From IMG/VR virus record IMGVR_UViG_3300045988_100207: a stretch of 64,000 nt of DNA. One strand, 5' to 3'. Below, piece by piece: positions 8,077 through 32,104 of the stretch; the stretch's first letter is position 1, and each line of letters begins with the position of its first letter. The notes beneath the pieces were generated by a model that was given only the letters and a program-made list of their open reading frames with translations, was not told where the DNA came from and did no database searches. Position numbers and translations under genes: made by a program. The DNA is from a virus.

Positions 8077-8106
8077 CAAACAGAATAGATAATAGGAGAT
8101 TACATT

Positions 8107-8917: not shown

Positions 8918-8925
8918 CTAACTTG

Positions 8926-8966: not shown

Positions 8967-8981
8967 AATATCAGAAAGATT

Positions 8982-9881: not shown

Positions 9882-12800
9882 TTATTCCAATCTATCCAGT
9901 TCATCCACCGCATCCATCATGATTCTGTCAATATTCTGATTAGCGAAGTTGATGCTCTCGGTATCAGAAGACTTATCTCTGAGTTTCTTCCAGCGCTTCA
10001 TCTGTTTCTCTGCCAACTCGATGATTCTAACCTTGGCAGCCTCCTTGGAGTTTTGGAAGTGGAAATACTCACCTATATTCGTGATTCTCTTATCAATCGG
10101 AACGTTCTTCGATTTCAGGCGGTCCACGTTGGCCATGGTCTTTTCCATTTCGTCCTTGTAGTTATACCACTTGCTCTTGGTTCGCTGCAAGCTGCTCTGC
10201 TCATTTGGCGTATAGAGTAGTGAGCGAAGGAAAGGAATATCCTTGGTTTCCGTGTCGCTTCCGTGCTTAATAACACCGATAGCACGCTCAGTAAAGGTAG
10301 CCGCACCACCACCTATGCCACCGATGTAGTGATTCAGCATACTAGGGTTTGTTACCATATCCAGGAAACTATTACCCAGCATATCTTCATTACCCTTGGC
10401 TACATCGTTAGTCTGAGCATTCACCCATTTATTCACAGCCATATATCCGTCAGGCACACCCCTGTAGGCTCTCTGCCAAGCAGGGGAATTTTCATTCCAG
10501 TCACCACGTCTTTCAATCGGCGCACCCTTCCAGTCGGTATTTAGCTCCCATTCCACGAAAGGAGATAGGGCAGAAGGAGAGATAGCTTTGATCGTCTCAT
10601 TCAATGGCTCCTTGCCAGCCGAAGAGTTACCGAGATAGTCCATCACCGGCACAAGCTGCGACATACAGCCCACGGCATCCAAGGCAGGATTCTTCTGTCC
10701 GCTTACGTTTGGCGAGAAGGTCAAGCCAGCCGCCAAGTCACCCAAACCATAGAAGGCTCTCAACTCGATGGCAAGCGGAATAGTAATAAACTGTCCGCCA
10801 CCTTTATATATACAGAGATTGTTTCTTCTCACGTAGTCAGGCAACTCGCCGTATGGGTCCTTCACACCCTTTCTGTCCTTCTCGTCCTCACTCGCAATCA
10901 GCACATTGTTACCTAGTGCAGCCAACGCACCGAGAGCAAAAGGAATGGCAAGCATATTGATAGAAGTACCCACAGGATGATTCTTCAAGTTCTTCACAAG
11001 AAGATTTGTACTCTGAATACCGGCATTGAAGAACATAGAACAATGTCTCAGATAGCTAGCCGTAAATCCGTAAGTCCATCTTGCAGCCGCCTTGCCGCCA
11101 GTCATTTCTCCGTTCTTGAAACTCTTGATGGCATCACCGCTACCATGGCGGTTGAAGTTGGTAGATACCTCCTTCGCATCATAGACCGAACGGATGATAG
11201 AGCGGTTACTGTCTCGGCTCGCACAATAGGTAGCAAATCGGGCGATATTCTCAGCCACCTCGTTGATGTTCGCCAGATTTCCGAAGAAGAAGTCACGAAG
11301 GACAGCACCGCCCTTGTCAATCTTGCTTCTTTCGCCCTTCACATCTTTTTTGTATTCCTTGGTCCAATCCTGCATGTTCTTGATCTGAACCCAACCGGTT
11401 TCGCCGCCGTTCTCCATGAACTCCTTGAAATATCGCTGAACCTTGTCGCTCATATCAAGTGTTCCGTTACGATACTTGGCAAATAAGCCCAAGCCAGTAG
11501 TTCCGCTCAAATCCTTGAAGCTGATATTCGATGCACCCTTATACAAGCCCAACTGCGCATAGTACTTCGCCCATAGCGCACCATATCTTGCACCCTCCTT
11601 GGAAGTAACGTTGCTCGATGCAAACTCCGCATCACGCATGATGTTTCGCATCACGAACTCAGGGTTATAAGATGTACACAACTGCGCCATCATTCTTGAA
11701 ATAGAACTCAATGGTTTCATGATTCCCTTGGCACCCGAGTTCTCCAGCAATCCATTCAGAGCCTGCGCCGCTCTAGGATTTCCGTTGATAATAAAGGTAT
11801 GGGTCCTTCCGGCAATCTTCACATCTACGATATGCTGCGATTTATTCTCCGCTCTTTGGAACTTATAACCAATCTTGTCTCTGCGATAAACCTTGTATGC
11901 CATACCCTGTGATTCCTTCATCTTCATATCCTTATTGAAGTCTGAAACAATCTGGTTGATTTCGTCGGCCGTAGCATCCTCAGGAATATCAGGGTAGCGC
12001 TCATAGACGATGTTCACCACTGGGTCCTTCTCATACCAGACGCTTGTTTCGGTAATCAGATTATTGCCCGAATTGTTTCTCGCGAATCTTGCAAATGCCT
12101 GACGGATAGCATTCATACCACCGTTCTTGATGGCTCTGTTACCCATCGCACCAATCTGCGCCAGTACGTTAGTTTCACTCAGATACTTGTGTCCTCTCGC
12201 TCTCATAATCGTGCTTCCGATGTAACTCTTCGGGTCACCCTGCTCAGTAATGTATCCATAAGTATCTTCTGCCGTAGCCTCATCATACTTTCTCAAAGGC
12301 ACATACCAGTTGAACATATTCGATACATGACCATGCAATTCCTTGCTGATGATGCCATTCTTGTAGTCGCTGTCAATAGAATACTGGGTAGCAGCCTTCA
12401 CCTTATCCCAATAGTCCTTTACAGCTCCCTTCTTGATGCTCTCCATCTTCGCTTCCGAATCCATCACGCTCTGAATAGCCTCGGCATCATTGTAAGGGTC
12501 AGAAGATTTCGTCACCTCCTGTATAGCGTGCATACCAGAATAGTCATGCTCGCCAGCCTCGAAGTCTGCATCAAAGTGATTTCTGATACTCTCGTCCAAC
12601 TGTCTGTAGTACTCCTTCAGGTCGATGTTGCCAGCCTTCAACTCGTTGTCAAGATACTCCTTATCGCTATAATAACTGTTTTCCAAGAAGTCGGCATCCT
12701 GCTTTTTCTGCTCGTCCATCCTCATATTTCTAAGGAAATCACGCACAAAGAACTCTCTGTTTCGCTCCAAACCATGCTTGGTAATCATGTAGAGATTGAA

Positions 12801-15800
12801 GTTGCGAATCTTCTCATCATCCTTCTTTCCGTCGAAAGCATCCAGCACATCGGCCATGGCCTTGTCAAGAGGCTTCATCACGTTGCGCTCAAACATCTGA
12901 GCCGCATCACTCATCGCGCCCTGCATGGTGTTCTGCAGTATATAAGGATTCTCCGAAGAGGCAATATCCTCAATCTTCTTGTCTGGCACAATCGCATTCA
13001 TCAACTTCTTCAACGAAAGCATATTGTCCATATAGCTCTCTGTGAACATATAGCCGTGCTCGTCAAGTGAACGGTGGTATCTGTCAAGTGCCGTGCCGGC
13101 AGATGGGGTAGTACGGAAGTGAATCTCACCATCTGTAGCCTCATTCCACTCAGCCTTGGTAAGATTATCCATACTTCTAACCTTTCCGTCATTTCCGTAG
13201 AACATGCCATCATGCGCCACGACAGCAGGCATACGCTCATGGTCGAGACGGTATTTCACCGCCTCGGCTCTCATCTTCCAATAAGGATCATCCGGATTCT
13301 TCTGCAAGTTCTTGCTCAACCAGAGCAAGTACTTCACATCTTTAGTATTAGGAGCAACACGATAACCGATTTCGTGAAGGAAATCAGATACCTTGTTTTT
13401 GATACCATTCCAGAAGCCCGGTTCACCCTTGCCATCCTCGGCGAGTCGGGCGATACCTTCCTCAATGGCATCATAGATATTCAGAGGATTGAACTTTCTC
13501 TCCTCATCCACCAGCTTCTTCAAAGCCGCATTCTCAGGCTTATCCAAGTCGTACCATACTTCACGAAGGAACTTGTCGAATCGTTCATCACCAAACAACT
13601 CGCTCATTCCCTTGTGTCCAACCACCTCATGCCAGATGGTCTTCTCGGCAGTATATCTATCGTGGATATTAGGCATGTAAAGATGCACCTCGCCAGTCTT
13701 CTCGTCATACCAGCCAGTAATCTTTCTACCTTCCTCAATAGCAGCCTTAGCCGCCTTGTTGGTGATTTCATCAACCGATGAAACCATGTTCACCTTTGCA
13801 CCAGTCTTCTGAACCACCTTTTCGATATGGCTCTCAACAGATGAAGTGGGGTAGTTGCCATCGCCGTGGTCCGTGCGGAACTTGATGCCGCCATCCTTGC
13901 CCCATACATTGAAGGCATCCTTTGTCATTTTCACGTTGACGAACTTAGCCTGAGGGAACTCCTGTTCCAGTTCAGCCATCTGCTTCAAGAACTTCTCCTT
14001 TGTTTCAGGGTTCTGTCTGCCTTGCTCTACGGTAGTGATAGGCACACCAAGTTTTACAAGCTCTCTCAACTGGTTAGGGGTAACTACGTTCCAAGGGATA
14101 GCCAATCCTGTTCCTCTCAGTTGGTCGGCGATTTTCTCAGCAACCTCCTCGTCAGGCAATATTCTTACTGCCTTTCTCCATCTAGAGAGCATCACGCTTC
14201 TCTGTCTGTCCTTTGGCAGGAGGCTGTTTACTGTTCCAGAAGTCCAAGGCACCAAGCCCACAGAGTTCTTCGCGCCCTCGGCGTGATAGCCGCTAGTCTT
14301 CTCGCTCTCAGGAATCTCCCATTCCACAACCTTGATATTGCCTCTAGCGTAAGCGCCAGAGAACTGATCGTTCATCACCGAAGTGGAAGTGTGCATATAA
14401 GGGTTATAAGCCGCTGGTACTGGTCCTTCTCCTGCCCCAGGGTTCTTGTCGGTCTTTACAAGTTGGAACTTACCGTTCTTCACAAGGTCAGGTCGCTCGT
14501 CTGCGCCCATCCAAGCACCAATCTCTGTAGCATCAGTACGCTTTCCGTCAATGATAGCAGCCATAGGGGAGTAGAGCTTACCGTCCACCTCCTGCATTCC
14601 GCTATACATTCTGAAAGTCTTCTCCTTGTTGAGGCGGTCCAGTTCATCCTTGTCGGTAACTCTGTAGGCATAGCCGTTTTCCTCAATGTCATTCATGGCA
14701 ATATCATCAATCTTTTCATTGAAATCATCCATGATGTCATTGAGAGCCTTATCCATCTTGCTTTTATCCGAAATCTCAAAGAGTTTATGCCAAGCGTTCT
14801 TTACAGCTTGCCACAAGGAGTTATCGCCTCGGTTGCGCAATTCGTTAACTGCGTTCATGATTCGCTCACCTAAAGAAAGGCCAAGTATCTTTCTCTGCTT
14901 TCCACCTGCCATTTCAGCAGCAAATTCATACTCATCCTTACCACCATAGTTACGTCTCTTTCCTTCCTCCCAAACAATTCTACCATCAGCCTTAACCTTA
15001 TTGTAAATATCAATAACAGTCTTTACAGCTTCAATCTGCTTAGGAGTAAGCATACCTTCTGCCTTTCCGTCCTTTACAAGGTGGATGGCACCCATAGTAG
15101 CCTGATGAATTAACTCATGCAGAATGGTATGAGCCGCCTCTTTAGGGTTTGTGTATGTTCTAGAAAGAGTATCAATAAAGAGATTAATGTTTCTTTCTGG
15201 TGTAGCTTCACCAACATTGCCTCTCTCGTCACCCTCGTCCATGCCACCAAACTCAACTCCGAGTCGCTTGGCTATATCGCGCGCCTTCTCAAAGAGTCTT
15301 CTTGTGCCTTCTTCTTTTGCTTGATTTGTCGCCTCAAAGAGTCTAGATATATCTGCAAAAGAGGCTTTAGCTCCTCTTCGCAATCCATAGCCATCTGCGA
15401 GAGCTTTGGCTCGAACTTCTCGATAGTCCATTTCTCTCCTTGCGGCAGTTTTGGCAGCTTCAAGTTCAGCTCTTTTAAGTTGCACAAGATGCGTTCTACC
15501 TGCTTTCTCTCGGTTTCCAAAAGTTCGTCCCCAGAATCTAACTTCATCTTCTAGTCCATTTAAAGTGTAAGTAATTTCAGAAGCCTTGTATCTAGAAAAT
15601 TCTGAGGTATAATAGTCAAGATGTCTGTTAAACTCGGCTTTATCCTCATTCGACAAGTCCTTAGTCAACTCGTCAACTCTATCATCAAACTTCTTTTCAA
15701 TCTGCGAAGATACATTTTTATCTACATCTTCCGGAATGATTCTACTATTCTTAACATCTTTTGTATCTGTTTTAGAATACTGGAAGCCTCGGTCCTCACG

Positions 15801-18800: not shown

Positions 18801-21800
18801 AGCATCACGTCTTCTTTGTCCGCTAAGGGCAGCAGCACCGAATGTCTTACCCTTCGCAAGTTTCTTCTCTTTTCGGGCACCATTCTCGTCAAACTCATAC
18901 ACACCGTTGCTTACTTGGCTGTAAGTAGTCAATACATAGTCGTATTCCTCTGGCAGTTTTCCGTTCTTTTCGATGTAGTCGAGCACACGCTTCACCTCGC
19001 TCTTCGATGGCAAAGCAAATACTACATTTCCGTCTGAGTCAGTAATGGCAGCTTCCTTGGCACTACCGAATACAAATGGTCTTAGGTCTGGGCTGCCAAT
19101 ATCCACCAAGTCACGGTAAACATCACTCAGCAATCCTGCTGTCTTGGTGAAATATACAGGAACCTGACCCTGCTTCTTGGCGTATCTGATAAGCGAAGCA
19201 GCCTGTCTTCCCTTACCGATACCAGTCATATCTCCAATGATAAAGGCGTTGCCCTTCTTTGCCTGCTGCAAGGCAAGGGCTACAGAGTCAACCTGCTCTG
19301 CAGCAAGATGAGAATACAAATCATCCTTATCATTATAGCCCAGCTCGTCAACAAGGAACTGGTCGGCATCGCCCAACTTTTCAAGGTTCTTGTTTACCGC
19401 CTCCTGCTGGTCGGCAGGCATCACGGCTTTCAGAGTGAATGGATTTCCACTCTTAGGGGTATAGGTAACTTTCTCGGTGCTTAATCCACGTACGGATTTG
19501 TCCACCCGCTGTAGTTGTCCCCGTGGTCCGCTTCCGCTCCCGGTGCTGGCAGGTTCATCAGCATTTGGCTGAGCGTCATTCCGTCCAGCTCCTCCTGATC
19601 CATTTCCTCGCTGCTCGTTGGTTCCAGTGGTTGGTTCTTTGCTTGGAGAAGGCTCTGTCCCTGTTCCGTCTGTTCTACTATCTCCATCAGAAAGTCTTCC
19701 ATCTTCTCTTGGCTCGGTTCCTCGTTGATTTTCCAAGTCATCATGGGTTCCTGATACGGAAGTGGAGTCAAATAGGTCAGACTCTCGCTTACCATCTGGT
19801 TCGCTTCCTCCTCGTTTTCCTGCTCGTACTCCCTCTTTAGGAGTACCAGTAGCGCCTTGTTTATCAAGTTCTGGTTGAGCACTTCTTGTTTCTTCTCCGA
19901 TGGAAGAATCCATCCGTTCACCTCGTAGTATATCATCTTCAATTCGTTTATAAAGTTCGTCATAATCTTTCACGGTCTCGGCTCTAGCCTTATCCTTTAC
20001 TGGTGGAAAGGCATTCTCGTTCAAGCGTCTTCCGTTTATTAATATAATACGTGTAGGGTAGCTGGTTCCCTGCTTTGCATACAGACCACCATCCACATTA
20101 ATCACGTCCTCCACATTATAGTGGCTATAGAGATAACCAAGGAAAGCCTTATCCTTCGGATTCAGACTTCCGTTCTTGGCGTATTCAGTCTTGCCGCCGA
20201 TGATAATGGCAGCACGACCATCGTCCTTCATGCTCTCCAAGGCATTGATAGCCATCTGTCCTTCCAAAGAAGAAATCTTGTAGCCGTCATACTCCTTAGT
20301 GGTAGCACTACCGAATGGTGGGTTTGTCACCACCACGTCAACGTCCTTGTCTGCAAAAGGCTGAGTTCCGTCCTGACTGGTCACGTTCTTGAAGCCCTGT
20401 CTTCTCAGGTTCGCCAATCGCTGTGCATCAATATCGTTAACATGTACCTTATCCATTGGCAAGCCGATGGTAAGCATACCGTTGCCGGCACTTGGTTCAA
20501 GGGCACTGTCAATCACCTTACCTTTGCCCTTCACATACATATCCGCAAGGAAAGCATAAGGGGCAGGAGTAGAGTACTGCTGCTTCATCACTCGCTCAGA
20601 ATCTCTCTGGTTGAGGCTAGGCTGATTCTCATAGAGTGTCTTGATGCGTTCAAACTTCACGGCATCGTTGGTTGATTCAGAAGAAGCAATACCTCTTGCA
20701 CGCTTAACAATGGCTGTTTCAGCAAGCTCCTGAAGGTCTGTATCCTTAATATCCTTCAAACCAACTCTCTCAGCTATCTTTCTCAGTTCAACGATACCGT
20801 TAAACTTATGTTTGAAGCCCAACTGTAGGTTCACGGTATCAATAAACTTCTTCTCAGCCAGCTTCCTCTCCTCGGCAGTCTTGGAGTCACCCACCAGATT
20901 CTCCTGATGCTTAGGTGAAGTCTTCTCGTAGTAGTCAGCCCATTCCTTCAAGCTCATGCGCTGCTCACCATCACGATAGCGGATATTCATCATCTGCTCA
21001 TAGATAGCATCCACGTCTTCCTTCTTAAAGAGCTTGGCAGCAGGGGCAAACTCCTTGCGCATTTCCTTCACCACGTCTTCAAGATTGTGCATACCTCTCT
21101 TGATTCTCAGATAAGCATTCTCGGCCATGGCGCTCACCAGCTTAGGCAATACCTCCAGCTGTCTAGAGTTAAGACCAACAAACGAAGCAGATATTTCATC
21201 CTTGCCGGCATTCTTGAGCATATCCCAAAGGTCATTAACTTTCTTGTTTGAAGCCGCTACTGCTGCATCGTCAGCAGTTTGCTGAGGCTTCTTTTCGGTT
21301 TTTGCTTTCTTCTCCTTCTCGAATCCTTCTGCTGCATTCTTGATTCCTTCCATAGGGTCAGCAGATGGTTCCGCTTTAGGAGTCTCAACCTTTGGTTCAG
21401 TTTTCTGCCCTCTGGTCTTGGCAAAGATGCTTTCATAGATAGCACGGTGCAAATCATCCGTCACCTCACCATTAAGATAATCAAGAGCAATATCCTTGGA
21501 TAAATCATCCACGTCAGCCTTCATGATCTCCTCCTCAGTCAGAGGATGCTCCTTCTTGAATTCCTGGGCGGCCGCCGCAATCGGGTCAAAAGTAGGGTCT
21601 GGCTTCTCTTCTTTAGGAAGGAGTGGGAGACCGCCTTCTTTAGACGTTTCACCATTCAGCTTCTTCATGTACTCAATTCCGTCATGAATGAATTTCTCGG
21701 TTTCTGCAATATCGTCAGGATGCAGACGCATCAAATTATCATCCAATCCCTTGATATTTCCGATAAGCCAAGTTGCCTGTTTCTTATTCAGCTTCACACC

Positions 21801-24800
21801 TTCAAGAAGTTTTCTTGTTGTAGGATCGTCAGAGGTCAGACGTTCAAGATAACTCAACTGCTTTTCAGTAGCAGGCTCAACTGGCTCATTCTTGATTCTG
21901 TCTAGCGCATTTCTTGCCATGCTGAGAATGCCAGCAATCGTATTACTACGAGAAGGTTCTGGTTTCCACTCATCATGAGGAATGCCCAGATAATCATCAA
22001 GTAAGTCTTCTGCCTTGTAGAGAAGCTGAAAAGCATCATCCTTCTTCTTGATTCCACCTTTCTCAATCTCTTCAAGCAAAGCCTTCTTACGGTCATAGAT
22101 AGTACCTTTCGGCATTTCTTCCGAACTGGTTTCGGTCTTATCGTCAATTCGCTCCAACACACCATTCAGGTCACCAAACTTCTTGCCATCATACTCGTAG
22201 TATGAACCAGTGTATTCGCCCTTCTCGTTTGGCTCATCAACCTTGATAACCTCCTTGTCTCCATCAATCAGAATCTTCTGCTTCATGATAGGACCATTCT
22301 TTGATGGAGTCTCGGTTTCCTCGTCCGTCACTTCAATACGACTTTCGAGTTCCTTGTTTACCAAATCGTCAGGTTCCTCTACTCTTCGTCGCTCTGCTTC
22401 TGCTGGTTCATTTCCTCCTGATGCTTCTTGTTGAGGTTCTTCAACGCCTGAAACATCATGGCCTCCTTCAATTTCTGAATGTCCTGTTCCATAATCTTGC
22501 CATTTTTTAAAGTTCAAATACTCATTAATTAACTCTTCCTTGGTAGGAGCTGCTTCAAACATATTGCCCTCGCCAGTATTTCTAGCCTTAGCGATGCGGT
22601 TGTATTCGTCAAGTAAATCTCTGAAATCAGAAACCTTGCCCTCCAAGGCTAAAGCCATCATCTGAGAGATAGAAGGGTAGCGCTTAGCTGCATCCTCACC
22701 GAACATGGATGGTGTTCTCAGCAGCGTATCAACCTTATTGCCGCCCTGTCTTGCCTCATAGAGCAACTGGATAGCCTGATCTATCTCATCACGAAGAGAG
22801 AACTCGCCCAACTTCATATTATCCATTACCGAGCGGATAGCGTTGATAGCCTTGTTCTTCACCGTAGAGTCGATGCCCAGCATTCTGATAGTCTCTGGCT
22901 TGAAGATTGAACCCAAAAGAAGGTTCTTCACATACTCCCTGCCTTGTGCAGAAAGTCGCTCAGGACTATCCATCATCTGCGCCACCTCGTTCTGTCCGAT
23001 GATGCCTTTATCTACTAACGTCTTTACCAAGTCATTTATTGCCTTGGAATTGTTAAAGAAAGCATCAAGAGAGCCATTTCCCTCAATCTCGGCAACAATC
23101 GCACCTACCTCGTCAGAAGTCAAGGTCTTAGCCTTGGCAACCGCCTGTTCGGTATTACTCTGAGTCTTCTTCTCGTTTCGGTTAAACTTAGCGAAGGTAG
23201 CTGCATCGTATGGCAATCTCTCATCCGTCACCAACACCAGACGTGGATGCTCGATTCCGCTCTGCTCAATCTGCTCTTTGGTAAAGCCGAAGTTCTCGGC
23301 ATTCTCCAAGAGATCGTTGATGTATTCTGCGTCCGTGCCTTCCTTTGCAGCCTTCTGTCCTGCCATCGTTCTACCGTTACCATCATAAACGATGCCCTCG
23401 TCAGACACCACTGGCACCTGCTCGATAGCCATACCGTTATACTTTCGGGCTATCTGGTCCGTATTCTGCTGAGCTGCCTTGTCGTGCTCATAGTCACGAT
23501 CGTTCACGGTTCTGCCCTCAGCATCGGTAGGGAATCCCTCAGATTTCTTATAGTCGTTATTCACATCATGAGAAGGAGTAAGACTTTCTGCCGGAACAAT
23601 CTCATAGTGTCCCTTAATCTTTGTCTCTCCGTCAGGCAGCATTCTTGTGCGCTTGTTGCCTACAAGTCTAGGTGCATTCACAAACTTCTGTGCAGCCACG
23701 CTGCCAGCCTCATGAGCGCCCTCAGTCTGTTCAGTACTGCCAACAGTCTCGGCAACCTTCTTGGCAGTCATAGTCTTCTTGATATTCTGAGCGTGCTCTA
23801 GCTGCTTCTTGGCAGCTTCAATAGTCTGATTCTTCAAAGCCTCCTGCTCCATGATGTCGTTAGGCTCGGCGGTATAGTCCACCTTCATCTTCTCGGCATC
23901 CTTCAAAGCATTCTCAGCTTTCTTAATCTGTCCGTCCACCACCTTCTCGGCATTCTCCCCGAAATCCTCAGTAAGAATCTCCGCACTCTGCTCAGGAGTC
24001 ATGCTAGCATAGTCAGGCGTAGGTCTTCCCTTGCTGTCCGTAGCCATAGGAACATCTGTACCATCGGCAAACTTACGGGTCTGCTGAGGCTGCTCTACTT
24101 GTTGAACTGAGGCATCGCCTTCGCTAGCATTTTCCTCTGCTTCTCCATCACTTCCACTATTGGCATTGTCGCCTTTTCGAATTTTTCCATCTGTTTCATT
24201 GTTACTAATCTCTTCATTTTTATTTTCTTTAGGTTGAACTTCCTGCTGCGCCTTGGCTGCATCCTGCATCGCCTGCTCCTGTGCCGCCTGATTGTAAGGC
24301 TCAGAGTTCTTCATCTGCAATCTCTGACGATATTCTGCAGCAAACTGGTCGATAGGCTGGTTTTGGAGCAGAGTAACCTCGTCTGCCTTCACGTAAACCA
24401 TTTCCTTTGTATTAGGATCTAAGCAGACGAGCATATCGCCGCTGCCTTCCTTGGCTCTACCTGTAGTCTGGTCGAAGGCAACATCACCCGAACCAACAAG
24501 AAGTGTTCTTCCGTTGCTGTCTTGAACATACAGAGCCTGCTCGCCATTCATCGCCTGACCGTTCAAGGTTCCGTGATAGCTCCAATCTGAAATAAAGCTC
24601 TTCACGTTTTCCTCTATAGCGTCGGCAGTAGCCTGCTGCATACCCTGCACTCTGGCATTCGCATTAATATATTGGGCAAGTGGGGTCAACTCTTCTTGTA
24701 TCAATCCATTCTGAATGAGTGCATCGTAAATCTGTGCCGGCGTTAAGCCCTGCTGGTGCAATTGCTCAAAGGTTTGCTTGAACACATCGTTGCTATCCAT

Positions 24801-27689
24801 CGCTGCATCAAGGGCTTGCTCTGCGTTGCGAAGATTGCGCAACTCATCAACTACCACGCCGCTATCCGGGTTGTCCGTTCCCAGACTATGCTCCTCGGCA
24901 ACCGTCTTACCTTGGCTGGCAGACTGGTCTGCGTGTGGCCTCCAGCTAGGGAAAAGCTCATCTTCGAGTGCTCTCTTCACATGATAGAAGATTCTGTTCT
25001 CCTCATCAGTACGCTTCATCGGGTCCTTGCGCATGATTTTGTCAATATCAATAACAATGCTTCCTTCTTTACCAAGAAGTTCTTTGATAGAAGCCATGAA
25101 GTTATTAGTATAACCTTTGCTTTCTGATCTGAGGTAGCCAAGCAAACCGTTCTTATCTGCATACTTCGTCCAATCAAGATAGAGCGCACTCTTCTGGTTG
25201 TGCAAGTCATTAATCAGTCGGGCATTATTCGGGTCTGTAATATCCTTATTCTCGTCATATCCGTTTTCTTTAAGGAATCTAAACGCTAGATTAGTGACAG
25301 TTCCATCATCATCTATGAACTGCATATCCTTCATCCTTGCGTAGCCCATCAGCGACATCATATCGTCATTATCACGATAAAGCTTCTGCTTGTAAAGAAT
25401 AGCTCTGCGTTCATCGGCATTCTTATAAGATGTACGTGTAAGCAGCGTTCCATTCTTTGTGTATTCAAGAATCTGCTTATTCTTCACGTCGTTCACGCTT
25501 CGGTAGCTTTTGCCTCTTGTCGTGTTAAACAGTCCCATGGCCGCATTCACCTTCTCTTTGGTGCTCTGAGAAACGTCAGGGTCGTTCATGAAATCCGTGT
25601 AAGCAGTCTTATACTTCGGATCTCTTGGTGCTGTCTTCGATGCACGGTCCACCTTCACGAAAGCATCCATCAGATTCTTGCCAGATGCAGAAGAAATCAA
25701 TTCATTCTTCTCGTCAGGAGTCAGACGAATATCCACGGCAATAGGAGAGCCATTGGCATTCTTTCCAATCACGAAATTACCACCGCTATTATGAGTAAGA
25801 TGATGCAGAATATTGCCCATCTTCACGAAGTTACTAGACTCGCCAGCCTTGAATGCGCCAACCATCACAACATCTTCCAGCCAAGTGCCGAATGAAATAT
25901 CCTTATCACCGGTCACGTTGTCGGCAACCATCATGGTTCCAGCCTCAACGCCCAGTCCGGCGGCCGTAGCACCAAACTTCTGCGCGCCATGAAGCAACCG
26001 CTCGCCAGTACTCTTCTCCATACCTGTAATACCGAACTTGGAAACCCAAGGAGACATGATTGCGCCCGAAACTCCAAACATCGCACCCGTTACCGCACCA
26101 TGCTCAGCACCTTTCAGACCAGCCTCACCGATAGCCTGCAGCGAAGTATCATCGCCAGTAGAAGCCTGATTCAAAGCAGTAGTCACACCCGAATATCCTG
26201 CAAGGTTCAGCGCACCTGTTGCCGTTCTGGTTCCCAATCCCGACATGATTTTCTGTGCCGTAGTCATGTTGGCCACCTTGAAAGCCATCTGCTGGGCGGT
26301 AAGCTTCTGTGCTGCCTTCATCACGCCAGCCTTCACCAGTCCGTTAGTCAGAACTCGGGTTCCAGTATTCACGGCAGCACTTGCGCCGGCACCGATTACG
26401 GCGAGCGGACCAGAATCAGCAGCCATGTTTACTGCAGTAGAAGCGAATCTCGTACCGATTCCCGAGCGATAGGTTTCATCCTTGTGTCCGGCAACCTTCT
26501 GAATCTCCGCATCACCATCTGCAATGGCAATACCTTCCTGCAATCTCTGTCTTGTATCTCTAGACATAACAGATGGAGCCACCACCATACCGATAATAGA
26601 GTTACTGAGGTTCTTGACAATATAGTCAAGCGCACCATGAGGCATGATTTCCTCCTGGTTGCGCATCGTCAGAGCCTTCTGAGCATAGTTCATAATCTCT
26701 GGAGTAACGTATTTGTCCACGTATTCCTCTACACTCATGTTCAGTTTCTCTGCGCTCTCGGCAATATGGCGCTGCATTCCCTTCTGCGAATAAATCTCGT
26801 TGATTTTGCTGCTCAGATTGTTCATCAGAACGTTCTGTCGGTTCACTTGCTCCTGTGTCTGTGCATCACGGAAAGCCTGTTCCTTTACTGACTGAGGCGC
26901 ATAGATGCCGCCCATCTTGTCAAGGTTCTGCTGATACTGCTGACGTGTCAATTCCTGTGCCTCATTCATGGAAGAATCTACCAGTTCGAGCAGATCATTA
27001 CCCAAAATACCTTTGGACTGGCCGTCATTTCTTACGAACTTGTTACCCTCCACCTCATACTGGGCGAATGCTCTAGCATCGTCCTCTCTCTGCTGCTTGG
27101 CTCTAGCCCTGCGAGCTTCAGGAGTAGAAAGCTGCTGCATCGTCTCGTTGAAGTTCTTGGCAGTAGGGGTTATTCTGCTTCTGCTGATAGGGGTAGCTCT
27201 CTGCTGCTCCTGACGTGCTGACTGCTCTTGTGCTCTTTGCATGCGTGCGCGCGCATTACTAGCCTGCGCCTGCTGCATCGGGTTCATCTGGTCGTTACGC
27301 ATGTGCATCAACCGCCAGTTCTGCATGTAGTCTGTACCAGAAGTAGTAGCCGTTCTAGGCTGCTGAGCCTTCTGCTGCCTTGGCTTCCGATACTGAGCTG
27401 CGACTTCCTGCGCTCTCTGCTTCATCGTCAGCTTCTTGACAGGCTGAACTGGCTTCTGCTGCTGAGGCTTCGGATTTACTGCGTGAAGTCCGAGTCGCTG
27501 CGCAAACTCCTCATACGAACTACTGGAAACAGCACCGTCTGCATGAAGCGCATCATAGAGCTGCTTTCTGTTATGATAGCCCTGCTTGCCAGGCGCATAC
27601 ACGAACTGTCTGAAATGTTCTCTAGTTCCCGATACTGCGCCATCGGCTTTCAAGGCGTTATAAAGTTGGTCAAATTTATCTCCAGCCAT
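9882..27689 (-). CDS. giant multidomain (polyvalent, DarB-like) protein, 5,935 aa
   Basis: One uninterrupted 17,808-nt ORF. Motifs read in the translation: ParB-like, EPSAGNG + NPPF (N6A methyltransferase), GDMTGIGKGRQ / DESH / SAT / QMRGRIDRTGQ (SF2, strawberry-notch-like helicase), HELIH, HEVVGH. Confidence 0.95.
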   Translation of the reverse strand: MAGDKFDQLYNALKADGAVSGTREHFRQFVYAPGKQGYHNRKQLYDALHADGAVSSSSYEEFAQRLGLHAVNPKPQQQKPVQPVKKLTMKQRAQEVAAQYRKPRQQKAQQPRTATTSGTDYMQNWRLMHMRNDQMNPMQQAQASNARARMQRAQEQSARQEQQRATPISRSRITPTAKNFNETMQQLSTPEARRARAKQQREDDARAFAQYEVEGNKFVRNDGQSKGILGNDLLELVDSSMNEAQELTRQQYQQNLDKMGGIYAPQSVKEQAFRDAQTQEQVNRQNVLMNNLSSKINEIYSQKGMQRHIAESAEKLNMSVEEYVDKYVTPEIMNYAQKALTMRNQEEIMPHGALDYIVKNLSNSIIGMVVAPSVMSRDTRQRLQEGIAIADGDAEIQKVAGHKDETYRSGIGTRFASTAVNMAADSGPLAVIGAGASAAVNTGTRVLTNGLVKAGVMKAAQKLTAQQMAFKVANMTTAQKIMSGLGTRTATGALNLAGYSGVTTALNQASTGDDTSLQAIGEAGLKGAEHGAVTGAMFGVSGAIMSPWVSKFGITGMEKSTGERLLHGAQKFGATAAGLGVEAGTMMVADNVTGDKDISFGTWLEDVVMVGAFKAGESSNFVKMGNILHHLTHNSGGNFVIGKNANGSPIAVDIRLTPDEKNELISSASGKNLMDAFVKVDRASKTAPRDPKYKTAYTDFMNDPDVSQSTKEKVNAAMGLFNTTRGKSYRSVNDVKNKQILEYTKNGTLLTRTSYKNADERRAILYKQKLYRDNDDMMSLMGYARMKDMQFIDDDGTVTNLAFRFLKENGYDENKDITDPNNARLINDLHNQKSALYLDWTKYADKNGLLGYLRSESKGYTNNFMASIKELLGKEGSIVIDIDKIMRKDPMKRTDEENRIFYHVKRALEDELFPSWRPHADQSASQGKTVAEEHSLGTDNPDSGVVVDELRNLRNAEQALDAAMDSNDVFKQTFEQLHQQGLTPAQIYDALIQNGLIQEELTPLAQYINANARVQGMQQATADAIEENVKSFISDWSYHGTLNGQAMNGEQALYVQDSNGRTLLVGSGDVAFDQTTGRAKEGSGDMLVCLDPNTKEMVYVKADEVTLLQNQPIDQFAAEYRQRLQMKNSEPYNQAAQEQAMQDAAKAQQEVQPKENKNEEISNNETDGKIRKGDNANSGSDGEAEENASEGDASVQQVEQPQQTRKFADGTDVPMATDSKGRPTPDYASMTPEQSAEILTEDFGENAEKVVDGQIKKAENALKDAEKMKVDYTAEPNDIMEQEALKNQTIEAAKKQLEHAQNIKKTMTAKKVAETVGSTEQTEGAHEAGSVAAQKFVNAPRLVGNKRTRMLPDGETKIKGHYEIVPAESLTPSHDVNNDYKKSEGFPTDAEGRTVNDRDYEHDKAAQQNTDQIARKYNGMAIEQVPVVSDEGIVYDGNGRTMAGQKAAKEGTDAEYINDLLENAENFGFTKEQIEQSGIEHPRLVLVTDERLPYDAATFAKFNRNEKKTQSNTEQAVAKAKTLTSDEVGAIVAEIEGNGSLDAFFNNSKAINDLVKTLVDKGIIGQNEVAQMMDSPERLSAQGREYVKNLLLGSIFKPETIRMLGIDSTVKNKAINAIRSVMDNMKLGEFSLRDEIDQAIQLLYEARQGGNKVDTLLRTPSMFGEDAAKRYPSISQMMALALEGKVSDFRDLLDEYNRIAKARNTGEGNMFEAAPTKEELINEYLNFKKWQDYGTGHSEIEGGHDVSGVEEPQQEASGGNEPAEAERRRVEEPDDLVNKELESRIEVTDEETETPSKNGPIMKQKILIDGDKEVIKVDEPNEKGEYTGSYYEYDGKKFGDLNGVLERIDDKTETSSEEMPKGTIYDRKKALLEEIEKGGIKKKDDAFQLLYKAEDLLDDYLGIPHDEWKPEPSRSNTIAGILSMARNALDRIKNEPVEPATEKQLSYLERLTSDDPTTRKLLEGVKLNKKQATWLIGNIKGLDDNLMRLHPDDIAETEKFIHDGIEYMKKLNGETSKEGGLPLLPKEEKPDPTFDPIAAAAQEFKKEHPLTEEEIMKADVDDLSKDIALDYLNGEVTDDLHRAIYESIFAKTRGQKTEPKVETPKAEPSADPMEGIKNAAEGFEKEKKAKTEKKPQQTADDAAVAASNKKVNDLWDMLKNAGKDEISASFVGLNSRQLEVLPKLVSAMAENAYLRIKRGMHNLEDVVKEMRKEFAPAAKLFKKEDVDAIYEQMMNIRYRDGEQRMSLKEWADYYEKTSPKHQENLVGDSKTAEERKLAEKKFIDTVNLQLGFKHKFNGIVELRKIAERVGLKDIKDTDLQELAETAIVKRARGIASSESTNDAVKFERIKTLYENQPSLNQRDSERVMKQQYSTPAPYAFLADMYVKGKGKVIDSALEPSAGNGMLTIGLPMDKVHVNDIDAQRLANLRRQGFKNVTSQDGTQPFADKDVDVVVTNPPFGSATTKEYDGYKISSLEGQMAINALESMKDDGRAAIIIGGKTEYAKNGSLNPKDKAFLGYLYSHYNVEDVINVDGGLYAKQGTSYPTRIILINGRRLNENAFPPVKDKARAETVKDYDELYKRIEDDILRGERMDSSIGEETRSAQPELDKQGATGTPKEGVRAGKRGGSEPDGKRESDLFDSTSVSGTHDDLENQRGTEPREDGRLSDGDSRTDGTGTEPSPSKEPTTGTNEQRGNGSGGAGRNDAQPNADEPASTGSGSGPRGQLQRVDKSVRGLSTEKVTYTPKSGNPFTLKAVMPADQQEAVNKNLEKLGDADQFLVDELGYNDKDDLYSHLAAEQVDSVALALQQAKKGNAFIIGDMTGIGKGRQAASLIRYAKKQGQVPVYFTKTAGLLSDVYRDLVDIGSPDLRPFVFGSAKEAAITDSDGNVVFALPSKSEVKRVLDYIEKNGKLPEEYDYVLTTYSQVSNGVYEFDENGARKEKKLAKGKTFGAAALSGQRRRDAIEKLMDNAYLILDESHTAGGNSGQGNYFQHIIQKAKNVTFFSATFAKRPDNMPIYALRTAMNEGGMKSSDLIDAVKRGGATLQEIMSQTLTQCGQMIRRERDMTGVTIDWKAIDDPERVQEQREQYDSIIGLFNDIINFQKKYVSSYVDERNDELAAIQSTMGIKKGTAALGIKNQPFASKAFNTVQQVLLSLKAKSAAERAIDYLKQGMKPVIALNNTNESQTGNLALGEEMDAPDLGTSLKKGLEGTLRYTQKDAKDNSESGYIKLSDLGDEAVEAYHELEKKIEQTSTGLSLSPIDVIKNELQKAGYKVGELTGRQTEFVYNDNGTVTKVKRADTDKKKLARDFNDGKIDALILNKSAATGISLHASSKYKDQKKRVMIVAQQQLDVNDEVQMRGRIDRTGQVARGAYEYVVSLIPAEQRLLMMFKAKLKSLDANTTSSQKSKFNEMEVADITNKYGDKVVREYMAEHLDLYARMADPFGWEKSHGDDLSRIDPQTLVASGGGVGDGEAGADASKLLGRMALLRVSEQEKMLQEIGELYANEIQRLNEMGENDLEITELPLKAKTLHKEVWKQGAEPGGDNAFADNTYIEKVNMAILKKPMKASEVKASQDGLTGGKTWDEYKTEKKAAVKEYFDQKIADETQKYEERAVKAATKAKEKYIKDAKKGQKDSGMSDEQIEKMAGYQYDNIYKQEKDKLNDVMKNLKAKAEMFERVLDTFDTNQTFALPTDMNNPNELSGFGNSYGRLIDIKITDNYSPNASSVSFATLDGRRKITFPIVGKVGAGEGNIDVISAIDNMTKQAISMGDSHLRVLNQNFDNWDRLTSNESRKNGYIVTGNLMQALVDSKDQGLGGQLVKYTTDTGEVKTGILMPDRFDPKGLTTDAPINSVAEKFELSSWHGGIDEVTSSDGEVKVKRIDNNRGYYYELRVPKSKAKGGKYFMDEDLLKLVNGNNFETRGNNMLAEFKPEQLKPVLDRLSKMGVKVQEERNTSEDEGTHFREDRGFQYSKTDTKDVKNSRIIPEDVDKNVSSQIEKKFDDRVDELTKDLSNEDKAEFNRHLDYYTSEFSRYKASEITYTLNGLEDEVRFWGRTFGNREKAGRTHLVQLKRAELEAAKTAARREMDYREVRAKALADGYGLRRGAKASFADISRLFEATNQAKEEGTRRLFEKARDIAKRLGVEFGGMDEGDERGNVGEATPERNINLFIDTLSRTYTNPKEAAHTILHELIHQATMGAIHLVKDGKAEGMLTPKQIEAVKTVIDIYNKVKADGRIVWEEGKRRNYGGKDEYEFAAEMAGGKQRKILGLSLGERIMNAVNELRNRGDNSLWQAVKNAWHKLFEISDKSKMDKALNDIMDDFNEKIDDIAMNDIEENGYAYRVTDKDELDRLNKEKTFRMYSGMQEVDGKLYSPMAAIIDGKRTDATEIGAWMGADERPDLVKNGKFQLVKTDKNPGAGEGPVPAAYNPYMHTSTSVMNDQFSGAYARGNIKVVEWEIPESEKTSGYHAEGAKNSVGLVPWTSGTVNSLLPKDRQRSVMLSRWRKAVRILPDEEVAEKIADQLRGTGLAIPWNVVTPNQLRELVKLGVPITTVEQGRQNPETKEKFLKQMAELEQEFPQAKFVNVKMTKDAFNVWGKDGGIKFRTDHGDGNYPTSSVESHIEKVVQKTGAKVNMVSSVDEITNKAAKAAIEEGRKITGWYDEKTGEVHLYMPNIHDRYTAEKTIWHEVVGHKGMSELFGDERFDKFLREVWYDLDKPENAALKKLVDEERKFNPLNIYDAIEEGIARLAEDGKGEPGFWNGIKNKVSDFLHEIGYRVAPNTKDVKYLLWLSKNLQKNPDDPYWKMRAEAVKYRLDHERMPAVVAHDGMFYGNDGKVRSMDNLTKAEWNEATDGEIHFRTTPSAGTALDRYHRSLDEHGYMFTESYMDNMLSLKKLMNAIVPDKKIEDIASSENPYILQNTMQGAMSDAAQMFERNVMKPLDKAMADVLDAFDGKKDDEKIRNFNLYMITKHGLERNREFFVRDFLRNMRMDEQKKQDADFLENSYYSDKEYLDNELKAGNIDLKEYYRQLDESIRNHFDADFEAGEHDYSGMHAIQEVTKSSDPYNDAEAIQSVMDSEAKMESIKKGAVKDYWDKVKAATQYSIDSDYKNGIISKELHGHVSNMFNWYVPLRKYDEATAEDTYGYITEQGDPKSYIGSTIMRARGHKYLSETNVLAQIGAMGNRAIKNGGMNAIRQAFARFARNNSGNNLITETSVWYEKDPVVNIVYERYPDIPEDATADEINQIVSDFNKDMKMKESQGMAYKVYRRDKIGYKFQRAENKSQHIVDVKIAGRTHTFIINGNPRAAQALNGLLENSGAKGIMKPLSSISRMMAQLCTSYNPEFVMRNIMRDAEFASSNVTSKEGARYGALWAKYYAQLGLYKGASNISFKDLSGTTGLGLFAKYRNGTLDMSDKVQRYFKEFMENGGETGWVQIKNMQDWTKEYKKDVKGERSKIDKGGAVLRDFFFGNLANINEVAENIARFATYCASRDSNRSIIRSVYDAKEVSTNFNRHGSGDAIKSFKNGEMTGGKAAARWTYGFTASYLRHCSMFFNAGIQSTNLLVKNLKNHPVGTSINMLAIPFALGALAALGNNVLIASEDEKDRKGVKDPYGELPDYVRRNNLCIYKGGGQFITIPLAIELRAFYGLGDLAAGLTFSPNVSGQKNPALDAVGCMSQLVPVMDYLGNSSAGKEPLNETIKAISPSALSPFVEWELNTDWKGAPIERRGDWNENSPAWQRAYRGVPDGYMAVNKWVNAQTNDVAKGNEDMLGNSFLDMVTNPSMLNHYIGGIGGGAATFTERAIGVIKHGSDTETKDIPFLRSLLYTPNEQSSLQRTKSKWYNYKDEMEKTMANVDRLKSKNVPIDKRITNIGEYFHFQNSKEAAKVRIIELAEKQMKRWKKLRDKSSDTESINFANQNIDRIMMDAVDELDRLE
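13614..13631 (-). other. zincin-like motif 2 (HEVVGH, aa 4687)
   Basis: KTIWHEVVGHKGMSELFG is read directly from the sequence. Confidence 0.45.
15105..15119 (-). other. zincin motif 1 (HELIH, aa 4191)
   Basis: AAHTILHELIHQATMG is read directly from the sequence. Confidence 0.5.
17490..19290 (-). other. SF2 helicase core of strawberry-notch type, aa ~2800-3400
   Basis: GDMTGIGKGRQ (aa 2819), ILDESH (aa 2976), FFSATF, QMRGRIDRTGQ (aa 3358). Confidence 0.7.
20000..20600 (-). other. N6-adenine DNA methyltransferase domain, aa ~2365-2560
   Basis: Motif I EPSAGNG (aa 2398, nt 20481-20498) and motif IV VVVTNPPFG (N at aa 2456, nt 20313-20324). Confidence 0.75.
23340..23625 (-). other. ParB/Srx-like domain, aa ~1355-1450
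   Basis: ESLTPSHDVNNDY (H at aa 1374) and IVYDGNGRTMAG (aa ~1433). Confidence 0.5.
25815..26603 (-). other. Gly/Ala-rich hydrophobic (glycine-zipper-like) region of the giant protein, aa ~363-625
   Basis: IIGMVVAPSV...LAVIGAGASAAV...GAVTGAMFGVSGAI...GATAAGLGVEAGTMMVA. Confidence 0.5.
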
Positions 27690-30907: not shown

Positions 30908-31675
30908 CTACCCAAGCCCCGACAAGCCAACTGCCTTCTTCAAGCGGTATTGGTTCTTCTCCTCGGGAGTCATCATGCTCTCAGCCAAATGGTCGCTTGC
31001 AGCAGAACGAGCGGTCTCATTCATGGTGTGTGATACATTTGTGTTATCAATTGGCTTTTCATTTGAGCCTAAAGCGTTGGCTTTCACCCCTTTAGCACCT
31101 TCGAGTTCTGACCCCAATTGGTTCACACCGAAATTGAACATAGCATTTGACGCATTTTGAGCCGCATCACTAGTGGCTTGCGCCTTCTGCTGCTCGATTT
31201 GCTGACGTTCTCTAGACAACTGCTGAGTGTTCTGAAGGTGAGCATCCTCCACATGCTGCTTGCGAGCCGTGTCCTGTGCCGCTACGTTGGCTATCGTATC
31301 GCCCATAGCCTTGTTAGCTGCTTCTTTTGCCATCGCAACGCTTGCAGCAGTTCCACCGCCAACGGCAGCAGCACCATCAGCCTTGCGGACGTACTCATCC
31401 TGTACCTCCTTCGCCCTTCTCATGAGGTTCTGACCCGCTTTCGTATCAAGGTAGTCCGTGTTGTAGTTCTTGTCGTACCAAGCCTTCTCAGCGTTCGTTC
31501 TGTACGTGTTCTCCGCTTGTGCCCTTCTAGCCGCCTTCTTCGCCTTGTTTGCACCAAAGAGAGAAGACGCAACACCGCCCGCCAAGGCAGCAGCACCTAA
31601 TATCCACTCCTTTTTGTCCGTGAGTACAGGACAAGAGGTCAAATGCTTTGGGATTTTTGATAATATTTCCGTCAT
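30908..31675 (-). CDS. hypothetical protein with one TM segment and an Ala/Gln-rich coiled region (255 aa from Met at 31675)
   Basis: The track ORF extends to 31837, but a -7-like box at 31703-31710 favours the internal start MTEILSKI. TM segment: WILGAAALAGGVASSLFG. Confidence 0.65.
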   Translation of the reverse strand: MTEILSKIPKHLTSCPVLTDKKEWILGAAALAGGVASSLFGANKAKKAARRAQAENTYRTNAEKAWYDKNYNTDYLDTKAGQNLMRRAKEVQDEYVRKADGAAAVGGGTAASVAMAKEAANKAMGDTIANVAAQDTARKQHVEDAHLQNTQQLSRERQQIEQQKAQATSDAAQNASNAMFNFGVNQLGSELEGAKGVKANALGSNEKPIDNTNVSHTMNETARSAASDHLAESMMTPEEKNQYRLKKAVGLSGLG

Positions 31676-31702
31676 AATTGCAATTATTTGATGTTTCGAG
31701 GG

Positions 31703-31710
31703 CAAATATA
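31703..31710 (-). promoter_or_regulatory. -7-like box (CAAATATA, reverse complement of TAnnTTTG) for the minus-strand operon
   Basis: Lies 28 nt upstream of ATG 31675. No matching -33 element. Confidence 0.35.
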
Positions 31711-32104
31711 TAATATTTGAAGTTCCGTTTTGCCGTGTTCCAACCTCGTTCAAAATCGCCCCAAATCCCACAAATTTCTTTCTCGGGGCGCAACTCACCC
31801 CTTCTTCTCCTCTCTCTTTGCCCTCTAGAAAACCCATTTTGTAAACATACGTGATTATTGTAAAGAAAAGACAAGTGACTAAATATAAGCAAGTTAGTTT
31901 CAGTTGTTCCCGATGGAGAATAAAGCCGTGATGTAAAGAAAGTTCTTATTTCATAAAAGAAGATTCTTTGCAAACAAAAAAGGATGTTTGCATTAATAGG
32001 TACGCACGCACGCAAGGAGTTCGTTAGCAAACTTTAACTAGGCGCATTCAACCTTCTTGAATGGTTTTCACCCACAATCAACGCTAAACTCGCCCATTTC
32101 TGAA

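Follow-up and report, generated by a model that had tools for sequence, protein, structure and literature searches.

The 64,000-nucleotide (nt) stretch of viral DNA that we analyzed (IMG/VR virus record IMGVR_UViG_3300045988_100207; "the window" below means this whole stretch) carries one minus-strand gene that occupies 28% of its length (17.8 kb), probably about a quarter of the phage genome, and that encodes a protein of 5,935 amino acids (aa), hereafter the giant. The sequence of the giant supports its membership of the already described family of phage-type polyvalent proteins, in that it unites several unrelated enzymatic domains (ParB, methyltransferase and SF2 helicase) with LPD38, contains a methylase-helicase dyad, and is encoded by a phage with a portal gene and a terminase-like gene; its HExxH domain may be zincin-like, as in other members. 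What is new here is the module map of the giant (Table 1), together with a conserved leader, a chassis-wide HExxxH/HExxH site, the depletion of cysteine and a link to virion proteins.

The open reading frame (ORF) starts with ATG and runs for 5,935 codons with zero internal stops, as seen in the ORF listing and its translation, and ~5,900 codons without a stop exclude a chance origin. Contigs for comparison were retrieved through an exact-match look-up of the neighboring 472-aa protein. The first 9,981 nt of the giant gene match the window with 0 to 1 mismatches in contigs from five runs assembled independently (ERR13898567, ERR4091503, ERR4091500, ERR321317 and SRR14297189), and 2 of these 5 contigs reproduce the 5,935-aa gene call. 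Because the same sequence was assembled independently from at least five runs, the ORF is not an assembly artefact; this confirms the uninterrupted 17.8-kb minus-strand frame reported by the initial annotation and settles its worry over chimerism. A variant contig (L005, from SRR13144511) encodes a giant of 5,776 aa that is 95-97% identical to that of the window, and comparison of the two genes by the Nei-Gojobori method gave a ratio of nonsynonymous to synonymous substitution rates (dN/dS) of 0.10-0.13 over the first ~3,300 codons, with a dip to 0.04 within the unnamed N-terminal region. A dN/dS of ~0.1 demonstrates that the gene is real, translated and under purifying selection over these codons. 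Conservation as one ORF, on which the initial annotation had staked its interpretation, extends to relatives with giants of 5,936, 5,775, 5,004, 5,932 and 5,671 aa, among others.

So long an ORF might also be accounted for by chimerism of the assembly or by a pseudogene in decay that has stayed open, and breaks within the gene, at positions that recur, are indeed frequent in the contigs of relatives. With at least five assemblies in agreement, a dN/dS of this kind, full-length relatives of 5,000-6,900 aa that keep the same order from end to end, and giants in the cultured temperate Bacteroides phages BS-TP4 (gp3, 5,391 aa) and BKO1-TP3 (gp55, 5,553 aa; PQ571277 and PQ571269), this account has next to no chance of being correct. 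The breaks themselves, where contigs of relatives start or end, lie at aa ~3275, 3926, 4165, 4361 and 4500 (nt ~17865, 15912, 15195, 14607 and 14190) and coincide with module junctions. The mosaic giant gene is a recurrent breakpoint of short-read assembly, which yields many truncated database "proteins", and the module junctions explain the fragmentation of such phage genomes in short-read assemblies. We considered and rejected a split gene in those relatives with "proteins" starting at M4361: the gene begins ~30 nt from the contig end in two contigs, so these starts are assembly breaks at a module junction.

The giant contains 7 cysteines among 5,935 residues (0.12%), just 2 of them within the first 5,337 aa, versus an average of 1.57% in the 27 other ORFs of the window (binomial p = 4e-31). 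The two Bacteroides-phage giants are equally poor in this residue, with 4 cysteines in BS-TP4 gp3 and 8 in BKO1-TP3 gp55. Such depletion would suit a chain that passes unfolded through a narrow channel and an oxidizing periplasm. An NCBIfam search of the giant gave zero matches, and single-sequence searches of the PDB with both of its halves found nothing.

Table 1. Modules of the giant and the genes upstream of it, with positions in the window
Feature	Residues	Position (nt)	Strand	Remarks
Whole giant gene	1-5935	9882..27689	minus	polyvalent protein, 663 kDa, isoelectric point 5.6
Leader	1-80	27450..27689	minus	two tandem ~25-aa repeats, LYxALKADGAVSxxxxEEF
N-domain	81-1200	24090..27449	minus	Q-rich stretch first; G/A/S/T-rich block within
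DdrB-like ParB/Srx unit	1250-1850	22140..23942	minus	Pfam core aa 1356-1480 (nt 23250-23624)
Dispensable insert	1854-2016	21642..22130	minus	cleanly deleted in the L005 variant
N6-adenine methyltransferase (predicted)	~2371-2560	20010..20579	minus	EPSAGNG (motif I) at 2398, NPPF (motif IV) at 2456
Low-complexity linker	~2600-2740	19470..19892	minus	G/S/T/E/R-rich; few homologues span it
Strawberry-notch SF2 helicase unit	2743-3944	15858..19463	minus	GIGKG at 2823, DESH at 2976
Gluzincin-like HExxH domain	~4080-4330	14700..15452	minus	HELIH at 4191; optional cargo
Chassis	~4326-5935	9885..14714	minus	beta-rich start, HExxxH...EE, all-alpha body, hydrophobic helix, LPD38, coiled-coil tail
Upstream gene, 472 aa		27707..29125	minus	17-nt gap to giant; on every giant-carrying contig
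Upstream gene, 412 aa		29119..30357	minus	coiled-coil-rich; called 396 aa elsewhere
Upstream gene, 108 aa		30361..30687	minus	no named function
First gene of co-directional block		30908..31837	minus	longest ORF 309 aa; hydrophobic stretch near aa 80-100

Conserved backbone and exchangeable cargo

Our module map combines three segment searches (~1,300 aa each) with local BLAST. In these sequence comparisons, a backbone made up of the leader, N-domain, ParB unit and chassis is conserved, and the cargo between the ParB unit and the chassis is exchangeable; in the window giant this cargo is a predicted N6-adenine methyltransferase, a strawberry-notch (Sbno) helicase and a gluzincin-like HExxH domain. 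Pairwise alignment and Pfam place the same order of N-terminal part, DdrB-ParB, cargo, helicase and LPD38 end in the giants of the window phage, BS-TP4 and BKO1-TP3. Sister contigs from the lineage of the window phage encode giants of 5,936, 5,775 and 5,004 aa, and in the last of these LPD3 and ResIII/DEAD matches replace the Helicase_C_4 (Sbno) signature. BKO1-TP3 gp55 has an InPase domain (aa 1836-1974) at the place equivalent to the aa 1854-2016 insert, which by this comparison occupies a cargo insertion site. The HExxH region (aa ~3950-4325) is likewise optional: the relatives P0089, P0090 and P0099 lack it, so that their helicase runs straight into the chassis, and its HExxH domain is tandemly duplicated in P0053 and P0062.

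The leader consists of two repeats (QLYNALKADGAVS..F for the first, which pairs with QLYDALHADGAVS..F for the second), and since this pair is kept in relatives, the duplicated N-terminal motif seen by the initial annotation is real. It is 54-70% identical across giants of Prevotella, Alloprevotella and Muribaculaceae that are dissimilar over the ~1,000 aa behind it, and is still recognizable in BKO1-TP3 gp55. BLAST detects it in 33 representatives, and in 32 of them its start falls within residues 1-14. A short conserved N-terminal element on mosaic proteins is what a signal or docking site would look like, and this suggests that the leader is a candidate packaging or partner-binding signal.

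The N-domain is common to about 50 full-length representatives, at 22-91% identity, with a dN/dS of 0.04-0.34 between the window giant and the L005 variant. It gave zero matches to Pfam, PHROG and the PDB, and a profile of the N-terminal alignment (A4) searched against the PDB also came back empty. Within this domain, the initial annotation had described a glycine-zipper-like hydrophobic block at aa 363-625 (nt 25815-26603). The block is rich in small residues (~50% G/A/S/T) and low in charge, and its small-xxx-small-xxx-small spacing is mildly enriched (20 occurrences versus 12.1 +/- 3.5 in shuffles), so this much of the description stands; GxxxG is not enriched, and no 19-aa window within the block reaches transmembrane-grade hydropathy.

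The ParB unit matches ddrB-ParB (PF18763) at 44.5 bits versus a cut-off of 27.6 (E = 2e-11) as well as phrog_5143, and contains DGNGRT, a conserved G-R active-site motif, at aa 1436. It aligns with P1 DdrB aa 39-363 (E = 7e-8), and the BS-TP4 and BKO1-TP3 giants align over aa 1218-1849 of the window giant. A ParB/Srx-like module had been placed at aa ~1374-1445, well within this match.

The order of the methyltransferase motifs is gamma-type, with motif I before motif IV. The MTS profile of Pfam scores 24.5 bits versus a cut-off of 23, the BS-TP4 orthologue reaches 22.5 bits with N6_Mtase and so exceeds the cut-off of 20.4, and the homologous stretch of Acinetobacter phage MD-2021a is annotated as an N-6 DNA methylase. 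With scores that are marginal, we predict that the giant carries an N6-adenine DNA methyltransferase with intact motifs, the same motifs from which this enzyme had been called before. The low-complexity linker that follows was also correctly noted, and is evident from its composition. The helicase unit matches AAA_34 (53.4 bits versus a cut-off of 27, E = 2e-14) and Helicase_C_4 (91.9 bits versus 30.5, E = 7.5e-26) in Pfam. Its earlier identification as a strawberry-notch-type SF2 helicase was therefore right, and the extent then given (aa 2819-3368) was too short, in that the unit includes a ~420-aa extension past Helicase_C_4.

Of two HExxH motifs reported previously, the one at aa 4191 is genuine, and the one at aa 4687 is HEVVGH, i.e., HExxxH. 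H4191, E4192, H4195 and E4255 are invariant in a 12-sequence alignment (A3, aa 4060-4365), a gluzincin-type signature, and in an AlphaFold2 model of aa 3945-4700 (mean predicted local distance difference test score, pLDDT, 77) the HExxH lies in a helix after two short strands, a zincin-like order. The sole Pfam match of this domain is Peptidase_M90 at E = 0.1, the Pfam MPTase profile has no match in the giant, and a Foldseek search of the model against the PDB returned nothing significant (anthrax lethal factor, E = 0.45). These features are suggestive of a peptidase. The second motif is part of the chassis. H4687-E-x-x-G/A-H4692 is kept in 34-35 of 36 chassis homologues, and E4744, in EExxAxxAE, is invariant 57 residues past the HExxxH (H4687, E4688 and H4692; nt ~13410-13742). 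We take this HExxxH...EE arrangement to resemble the HEXXGH...EEXR(K)AE(D) of M49 dipeptidyl-peptidase III. The HExxxH is 1,248 aa from the C-terminus of the giant; a canonical HExxH is found 1,242 aa from the C-terminus in H0150 of a Shiga toxin (Stx) phage and 1,050 aa from it in Bcep22 gp75.

The initial annotation counted a further ~1,250 aa after this motif and could name nothing in aa 4700-5935. The length is real, and Pfam now names LPD38 (PF18857) there, at aa 5611-5820 (nt 10230-10859; 86.8 bits versus a cut-off of 27, E = 2.6e-24). The chassis also matches phrog_14770 and phrog_616, and contains the single transmembrane-grade hydrophobic helix of the giant (aa 5573-5598; nt 10896-10973). 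An AlphaFold2 model of aa 4640-5839 (pLDDT 73; predicted template modeling score, pTM, 0.68) is confident from aa ~4870 on and almost wholly alpha-helical. A search of this model against the PDB with Foldseek gave nothing significant (best E = 0.078), and a profile of the chassis alignment (A1) found nothing in the PDB. The same model had 95 fold matches in BFVD (best 1e-43), nearly all of which are C-terminal pieces of large phage proteins; some carry the name LPD38, and others are named after lytic transglycosylase (LT_GEWL), RelA/SpoT or methylase domains.

Using aa 4800-5935 as a query, we scanned 1.84 billion cluster representatives with HMMER, and identified 3,778 chassis-bearing representatives at E <= 1e-3 and 961 at E <= 1e-30; in nearly all representatives listed, the match is at the C-terminal end. 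Among the best 147 of the 3,778, with a median length of 4,690 aa and a maximum of 6,927 aa, 60 are of at least 5,000 aa and 12 of at least 5,935 aa. The size of the giant, which had been thought unusual, is thus ordinary within its family and extreme among characterized phage proteins. The giant belongs to a very large, essentially unstudied Bacteroidales sub-family of 4,000-7,000-aa proteins. Its relatives make up thousands of sequence clusters, with many proteins of 5,000-6,900 aa that are among the largest phage proteins. In the public assembly collection, 27 blocks index the neighboring 472-aa protein and 70 a neighboring virion protein.

Known relatives, phage context and proposed role

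Iyer, Burroughs, Anand, de Souza and Aravind (2017, J Bacteriol; PMC5512222) proposed the logic of injected enzymes and restriction evasion for phage-type polyvalent proteins. In their survey, DdrB-ParB and LPD38 are restricted to these proteins, and the methylase-helicase dyad is a core theme among them. The giant differs in that its helicase is of the strawberry-notch type, which is noted there "in a few instances", and in its backbone of leader, ~1,100-aa N-domain and ~1,600-aa chassis, which we did not find described in the passages of the survey that we consulted (PMC5512222).

The initial annotation had recognized a polyvalent protein with a methyltransferase-helicase core, which its hallmark domains bear out, and had likened it to P1 DarB. 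With respect to architecture this likeness holds: P1 DarB (2,255 aa) also has an N6A methyltransferase and an SF2 helicase in one protein, and we presume that the two are functionally analogous. At the sequence level it does not hold, since blastp against P1 DarB found only motif matches of 28-99 aa in the window giant (E = 0.003-0.011), whereas in the same test Bcep22 gp75 and BKO1-TP3 gp55 matched at 1e-16 to 1e-20. We have rejected placing the giant in the DarB family by sequence because these matches are short and motif-level. P1 DarB is packaged in the head and shields incoming DNA from type I restriction, its incorporation into the head requires DarA, Hdf and related proteins, and darB adjoins the portal gene. 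P1 DdrB (995 aa) is homologous to the ParB unit of the window giant; in P1, DarB and DdrB are separate, whereas the giant unites both in one polypeptide.

The closest cultured relatives are BS-TP4 gp3 and BKO1-TP3 gp55, the latter annotated as "DarB-like antirestriction". The window giant is 39% identical to BS-TP4 gp3 over the methyltransferase and Sbno unit and 28% identical over the chassis, and the portals of the two phages are 35% identical. Both Bacteroides phages also have a conserved small gene upstream of a cysteine-poor giant, as in the window phage. They differ in that their N-terminal ~1,100 aa cannot be aligned to the window giant by BLAST, in that BKO1-TP3 gp55 carries its InPase domain along with a classical SNF2 helicase with DarB-like similarity, and in the location of the giant gene, which in these two phages immediately precedes the portal and in the window converges on the tail-fiber block. 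The paper that describes BS-TP4 and BKO1-TP3 does not discuss their giant proteins (PMC12694917).

More distant relatives were identified through the chassis. Burkholderia phage Bcep22 gp75 (4,602 aa) is homologous over aa 5104-5650 of the giant (gp75 aa 3845-4321, E = 8e-20), and like JC1 gp69 (4,515 aa), a "DarB-like antirestriction protein", is also a giant encoded by the last gene of its block. JC1 gp69, the homologue of Bcep22 gp75, was represented by 51 unique peptides in CsCl-purified virions (PMC9144972). Bcep22 gp75 differs from the window giant in being DarB-like by sequence (E = 1e-16 to 1e-20), in its proteobacterial host, and in having a canonical HExxH in place of the HExxxH. In Stx phages, L0134 of 933W and H0150 of VT2-Sakai (2,806 aa; "LPD5 domain-containing protein") are homologous over their C-terminal ~640 aa (E = 2e-36). 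L0134 is likewise the product of a large last gene of the late block in a short-tailed temperate phage, and its HExxH is ~1,240 aa from the C-terminus, close to the position of the motif in the giant; it is half the size, with no BLAST similarity beyond the C-terminal ~640 aa.

The window phage is temperate and tailed. The window encodes an integrase (44060-45226), RecT, NinG, an SbcC-like ATPase, an HNH endonuclease and a 1,238-aa tail fiber. A second contig, identical over the first 1,300 bases of the window, continues leftwards with a P22-type portal (PF16510; phrog_156 at 1.5e-53) and a terminase-like 705-aa protein, and a 219-aa ORF within the window (633-1292) scores as an SU10-type adaptor. 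The portal, the terminase-like gene, the adaptor and the tail fiber are all ~8-20 kb from the giant. Given the types of portal and adaptor, and since no tape-measure gene was seen on the way from the adaptor to the fiber, a short-tailed virion is likely. Names in databases on fragments of 87-91% identity point to Segatella (Prevotella) copri as the host.

These surroundings bear on whether the giant might stem from a conjugative element and be delivered by type IV secretion. The methyltransferase and Sbno unit (aa ~2280-3950) is 33-35% identical end to end with chromosomal Bacteroidota proteins of ~1,700 aa that are named "strawberry notch family", many of them with RadC/JAB domains, and proteins of this kind are common in Bacteroidota chromosomes, probably in integrative and conjugative elements. 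With portal, terminase-like gene, adaptor, tail fiber, integrase and RecT around the giant, no type IV secretion gene seen, and hallmark domains that the survey lists as phage-type only (PMC5512222), we consider this origin highly improbable.

This is a genuine temperate-phage gene for a polyvalent protein, which in our view is probably packed in the virion and injected with the DNA to counter restriction; we infer entry with the DNA from homology and context. The giant would be made late and loaded into the capsid, a step that might be mediated by the leader and/or the chassis and perhaps by the small upstream proteins. It would then leave via the portal and tail as a largely unfolded chain, either preceding the DNA or together with it, and in the new cell its cargo enzymes would work on the incoming genome in advance of any phage gene expression. 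Shielding or modifying this DNA against restriction would fall to the methyltransferase and helicase, in the manner of P1 DarB; the ParB-like domain would serve as a nuclease or nucleoside triphosphatase on DNA, and the polypeptide may be cleaved into working units by the two zincin-like sites. Since the middle is swappable, sister phages would bring other cargo on the same backbone.

A related proposal is that the giant is mainly a structural ejectosome protein that forms or lines a conduit across the envelope, with the hydrophobic N-terminal block, the helix at aa 5573-5598 and the chassis doing this work and the enzymes as secondary passengers. This overlaps with packaging and injection as set out above. 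Podophage ejection proteins such as T7 gp16 and PhiM1 gp48 are large proteins that are kept inside the capsid and exit by way of a short tail, and the N4 virion RNA polymerase is a giant ejected protein. A profile of the HExxH domain matched the PDB entry for PhiM1 gp48 (8VB2 chain A, E = 5.6e-4) over ~125 aa, aligning with gp48 residues 381-510 and sharing a YGL..E motif; weaker matches were to an "internal virion protein" (0.08) and a thermolysin-like neutral protease (0.14). PhiM1 gp48 is the tetrameric ejection protein of a podophage and the equivalent of T7 gp16 (PMC11440229). The P22-type portal, the SU10-type adaptor and the lack of a tape-measure gene between adaptor and fiber are also as expected of such a conduit, as are LT_GEWL names among the BFVD chassis-fold proteins (as in T7 gp16), a conserved backbone with variable cargo, and the scarcity of cysteine. 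Against this, similarity to ejection proteins is confined to those ~125 aa, and Foldseek found no resemblance of either model to any solved ejection protein (nothing below E = 0.07). The giant has a single transmembrane-grade segment in 5,935 aa, and Pfam finds neither a lytic transglycosylase nor an RNA polymerase domain in it. We therefore regard a mainly structural role as unlikely.

The giant might instead remain unpackaged and act in the producing or lysogenic cell, in replication or epigenetic methylation of progeny DNA, or in a superinfection or defense function of the prophage. The similarity of its methyltransferase-helicase unit to chromosomal proteins would fit such a role, as would the position of the gene between the tail-fiber block and early or lysogeny-type small genes, outside the head module. 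PADLOC defense-system models, however, matched the giant with 0 families at E <= 0.001, which speaks against a defense system, and a homologue of the chassis is virion-associated. According to the survey, DdrB-ParB and LPD38 are known only from phage-type polyvalent proteins (PMC5512222). A conserved non-enzymatic backbone of ~4,000 aa with almost no cysteine would also have no evident purpose inside the cell, and we think this role quite unlikely.

Several observations weigh against packaging and injection as we propose them. The giant gene does not adjoin the portal; it is ~8 kb from the tail-fiber genes and convergent with them. The short-tailed morphology is read from just two Pfam matches, and the N6_Mtase profile is marginal in the window giant, at 20.1 bits, 0.3 below the cut-off of 20.4. 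The suggestive link of the HExxH domain to zincins and ejection proteins comes from one borderline profile match that Foldseek did not reproduce. Because no solved structural relative was found for the chassis or the N-domain, the roles given to both are guesses, and packaging, ejection, methylation and anti-restriction are all predictions, for the giant and its Bacteroidales relatives alike.

If the giant is co-injected, its swappable middle would represent a natural catalogue of counter-defense enzymes for Bacteroidales, and the leader and chassis could be harnessed for protein delivery into gut bacteria. Going further, the backbone of leader, N-domain and chassis may be a single-chain delivery vehicle that threads the portal unfolded and forms part or all of an ejectosome conduit, with the zincin sites freeing the cargo, although we put this forward as a tentative possibility. 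The leader would then be a capsid-targeting or ejection signal, the backbone would serve as a conduit in Bacteroidales podophages, and the zincin sites would release plugged-in anti-defense enzymes; if this is true, thousands of gut phage lineages would contain a programmable protein-injection cassette.

The operon and other features of the window

The giant is the last in a run of five co-directional genes separated by gaps of 220, 3, -7 and 17 nt, with convergent plus-strand genes downstream, in keeping with the earlier description of it as the terminal gene of a dedicated operon. Scans for sigma-70 promoters and for terminators around the operon gave scores not above shuffles, and Bacteroidota promoters are not modelled by these scans. 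From the giant gene to the start of the operon (9882-31837), G+C content is 45-50% with a strongly negative GC skew, and the remaining window has 35-44% G+C.

The 472-aa protein encoded immediately upstream has a Gly/Asn-rich N-terminus, a very basic K/R/Q-rich C-terminal half and zero cysteines, and gave zero matches to Pfam or PHROG. It may be a co-packaged partner or a DNA-associated protein. Compared with the genes that precede the giants of Bcep22, the Stx phages and the Bacteroides phages, the 472- and 412-aa proteins had a best E of 0.1, and the 309-aa gene alone was conserved among the upstream genes compared. Residues 80-232 of its product match BKO1-TP3 gp57 (35% identity, 1e-23) and BS-TP4 gp1 (1e-8), and this homologue stands two positions upstream of the giant in both Bacteroides phages.

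Directly downstream of the giant and convergent with it is a 128-aa ORF (9426-9812, plus strand) with a TTG start and a HEMLH motif. L014 has a called gene of equal length at the equivalent place (17922-18308), and the product could resemble a small metalloprotease. The adjacent 188-aa ORF (8658-9224, minus strand, GTG start) is Cys/His/Leu-rich, has zero matches and looks non-coding. It holds a 17-bp stem-loop with a T-run behind it on the plus strand (8925-8962), at which the convergent plus-strand block probably terminates. That block (6718-8607) consists of genes of 332/297, 114 and 166 aa, with matches to phrog_16490 and phrog_28898. It opposes the giant in the window, L014 and L015, and is co-directional with it in L011 (6853-8637) and L016 (17049-17924), so this segment beside the tail-fiber genes has been inverted or rearranged between close relatives.

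The tyrosine integrase gene (plus strand) sits mid-window, and ARAGORN identified zero tRNA genes in the 64 kb. BS-TP4 and BKO1-TP3 encode a second very large protein of ~2,640 aa beside a reverse transcriptase (L001 31639-39555 and L002 26961-34898), with no counterpart seen in the window; BS-TP4 gp14 is named as a diversity-generating-retroelement target in its publication (PMC12694917). The tail-fiber region (1300-5281, plus strand) is a swapped cassette when compared with positions 10668-13986 of L014-L016: the window has one 1,238-aa collagen-repeat gene, and in the sister contigs, whose upstream genes are identical, a 202-aa gene precedes one of 734, 753 or 812 aa.

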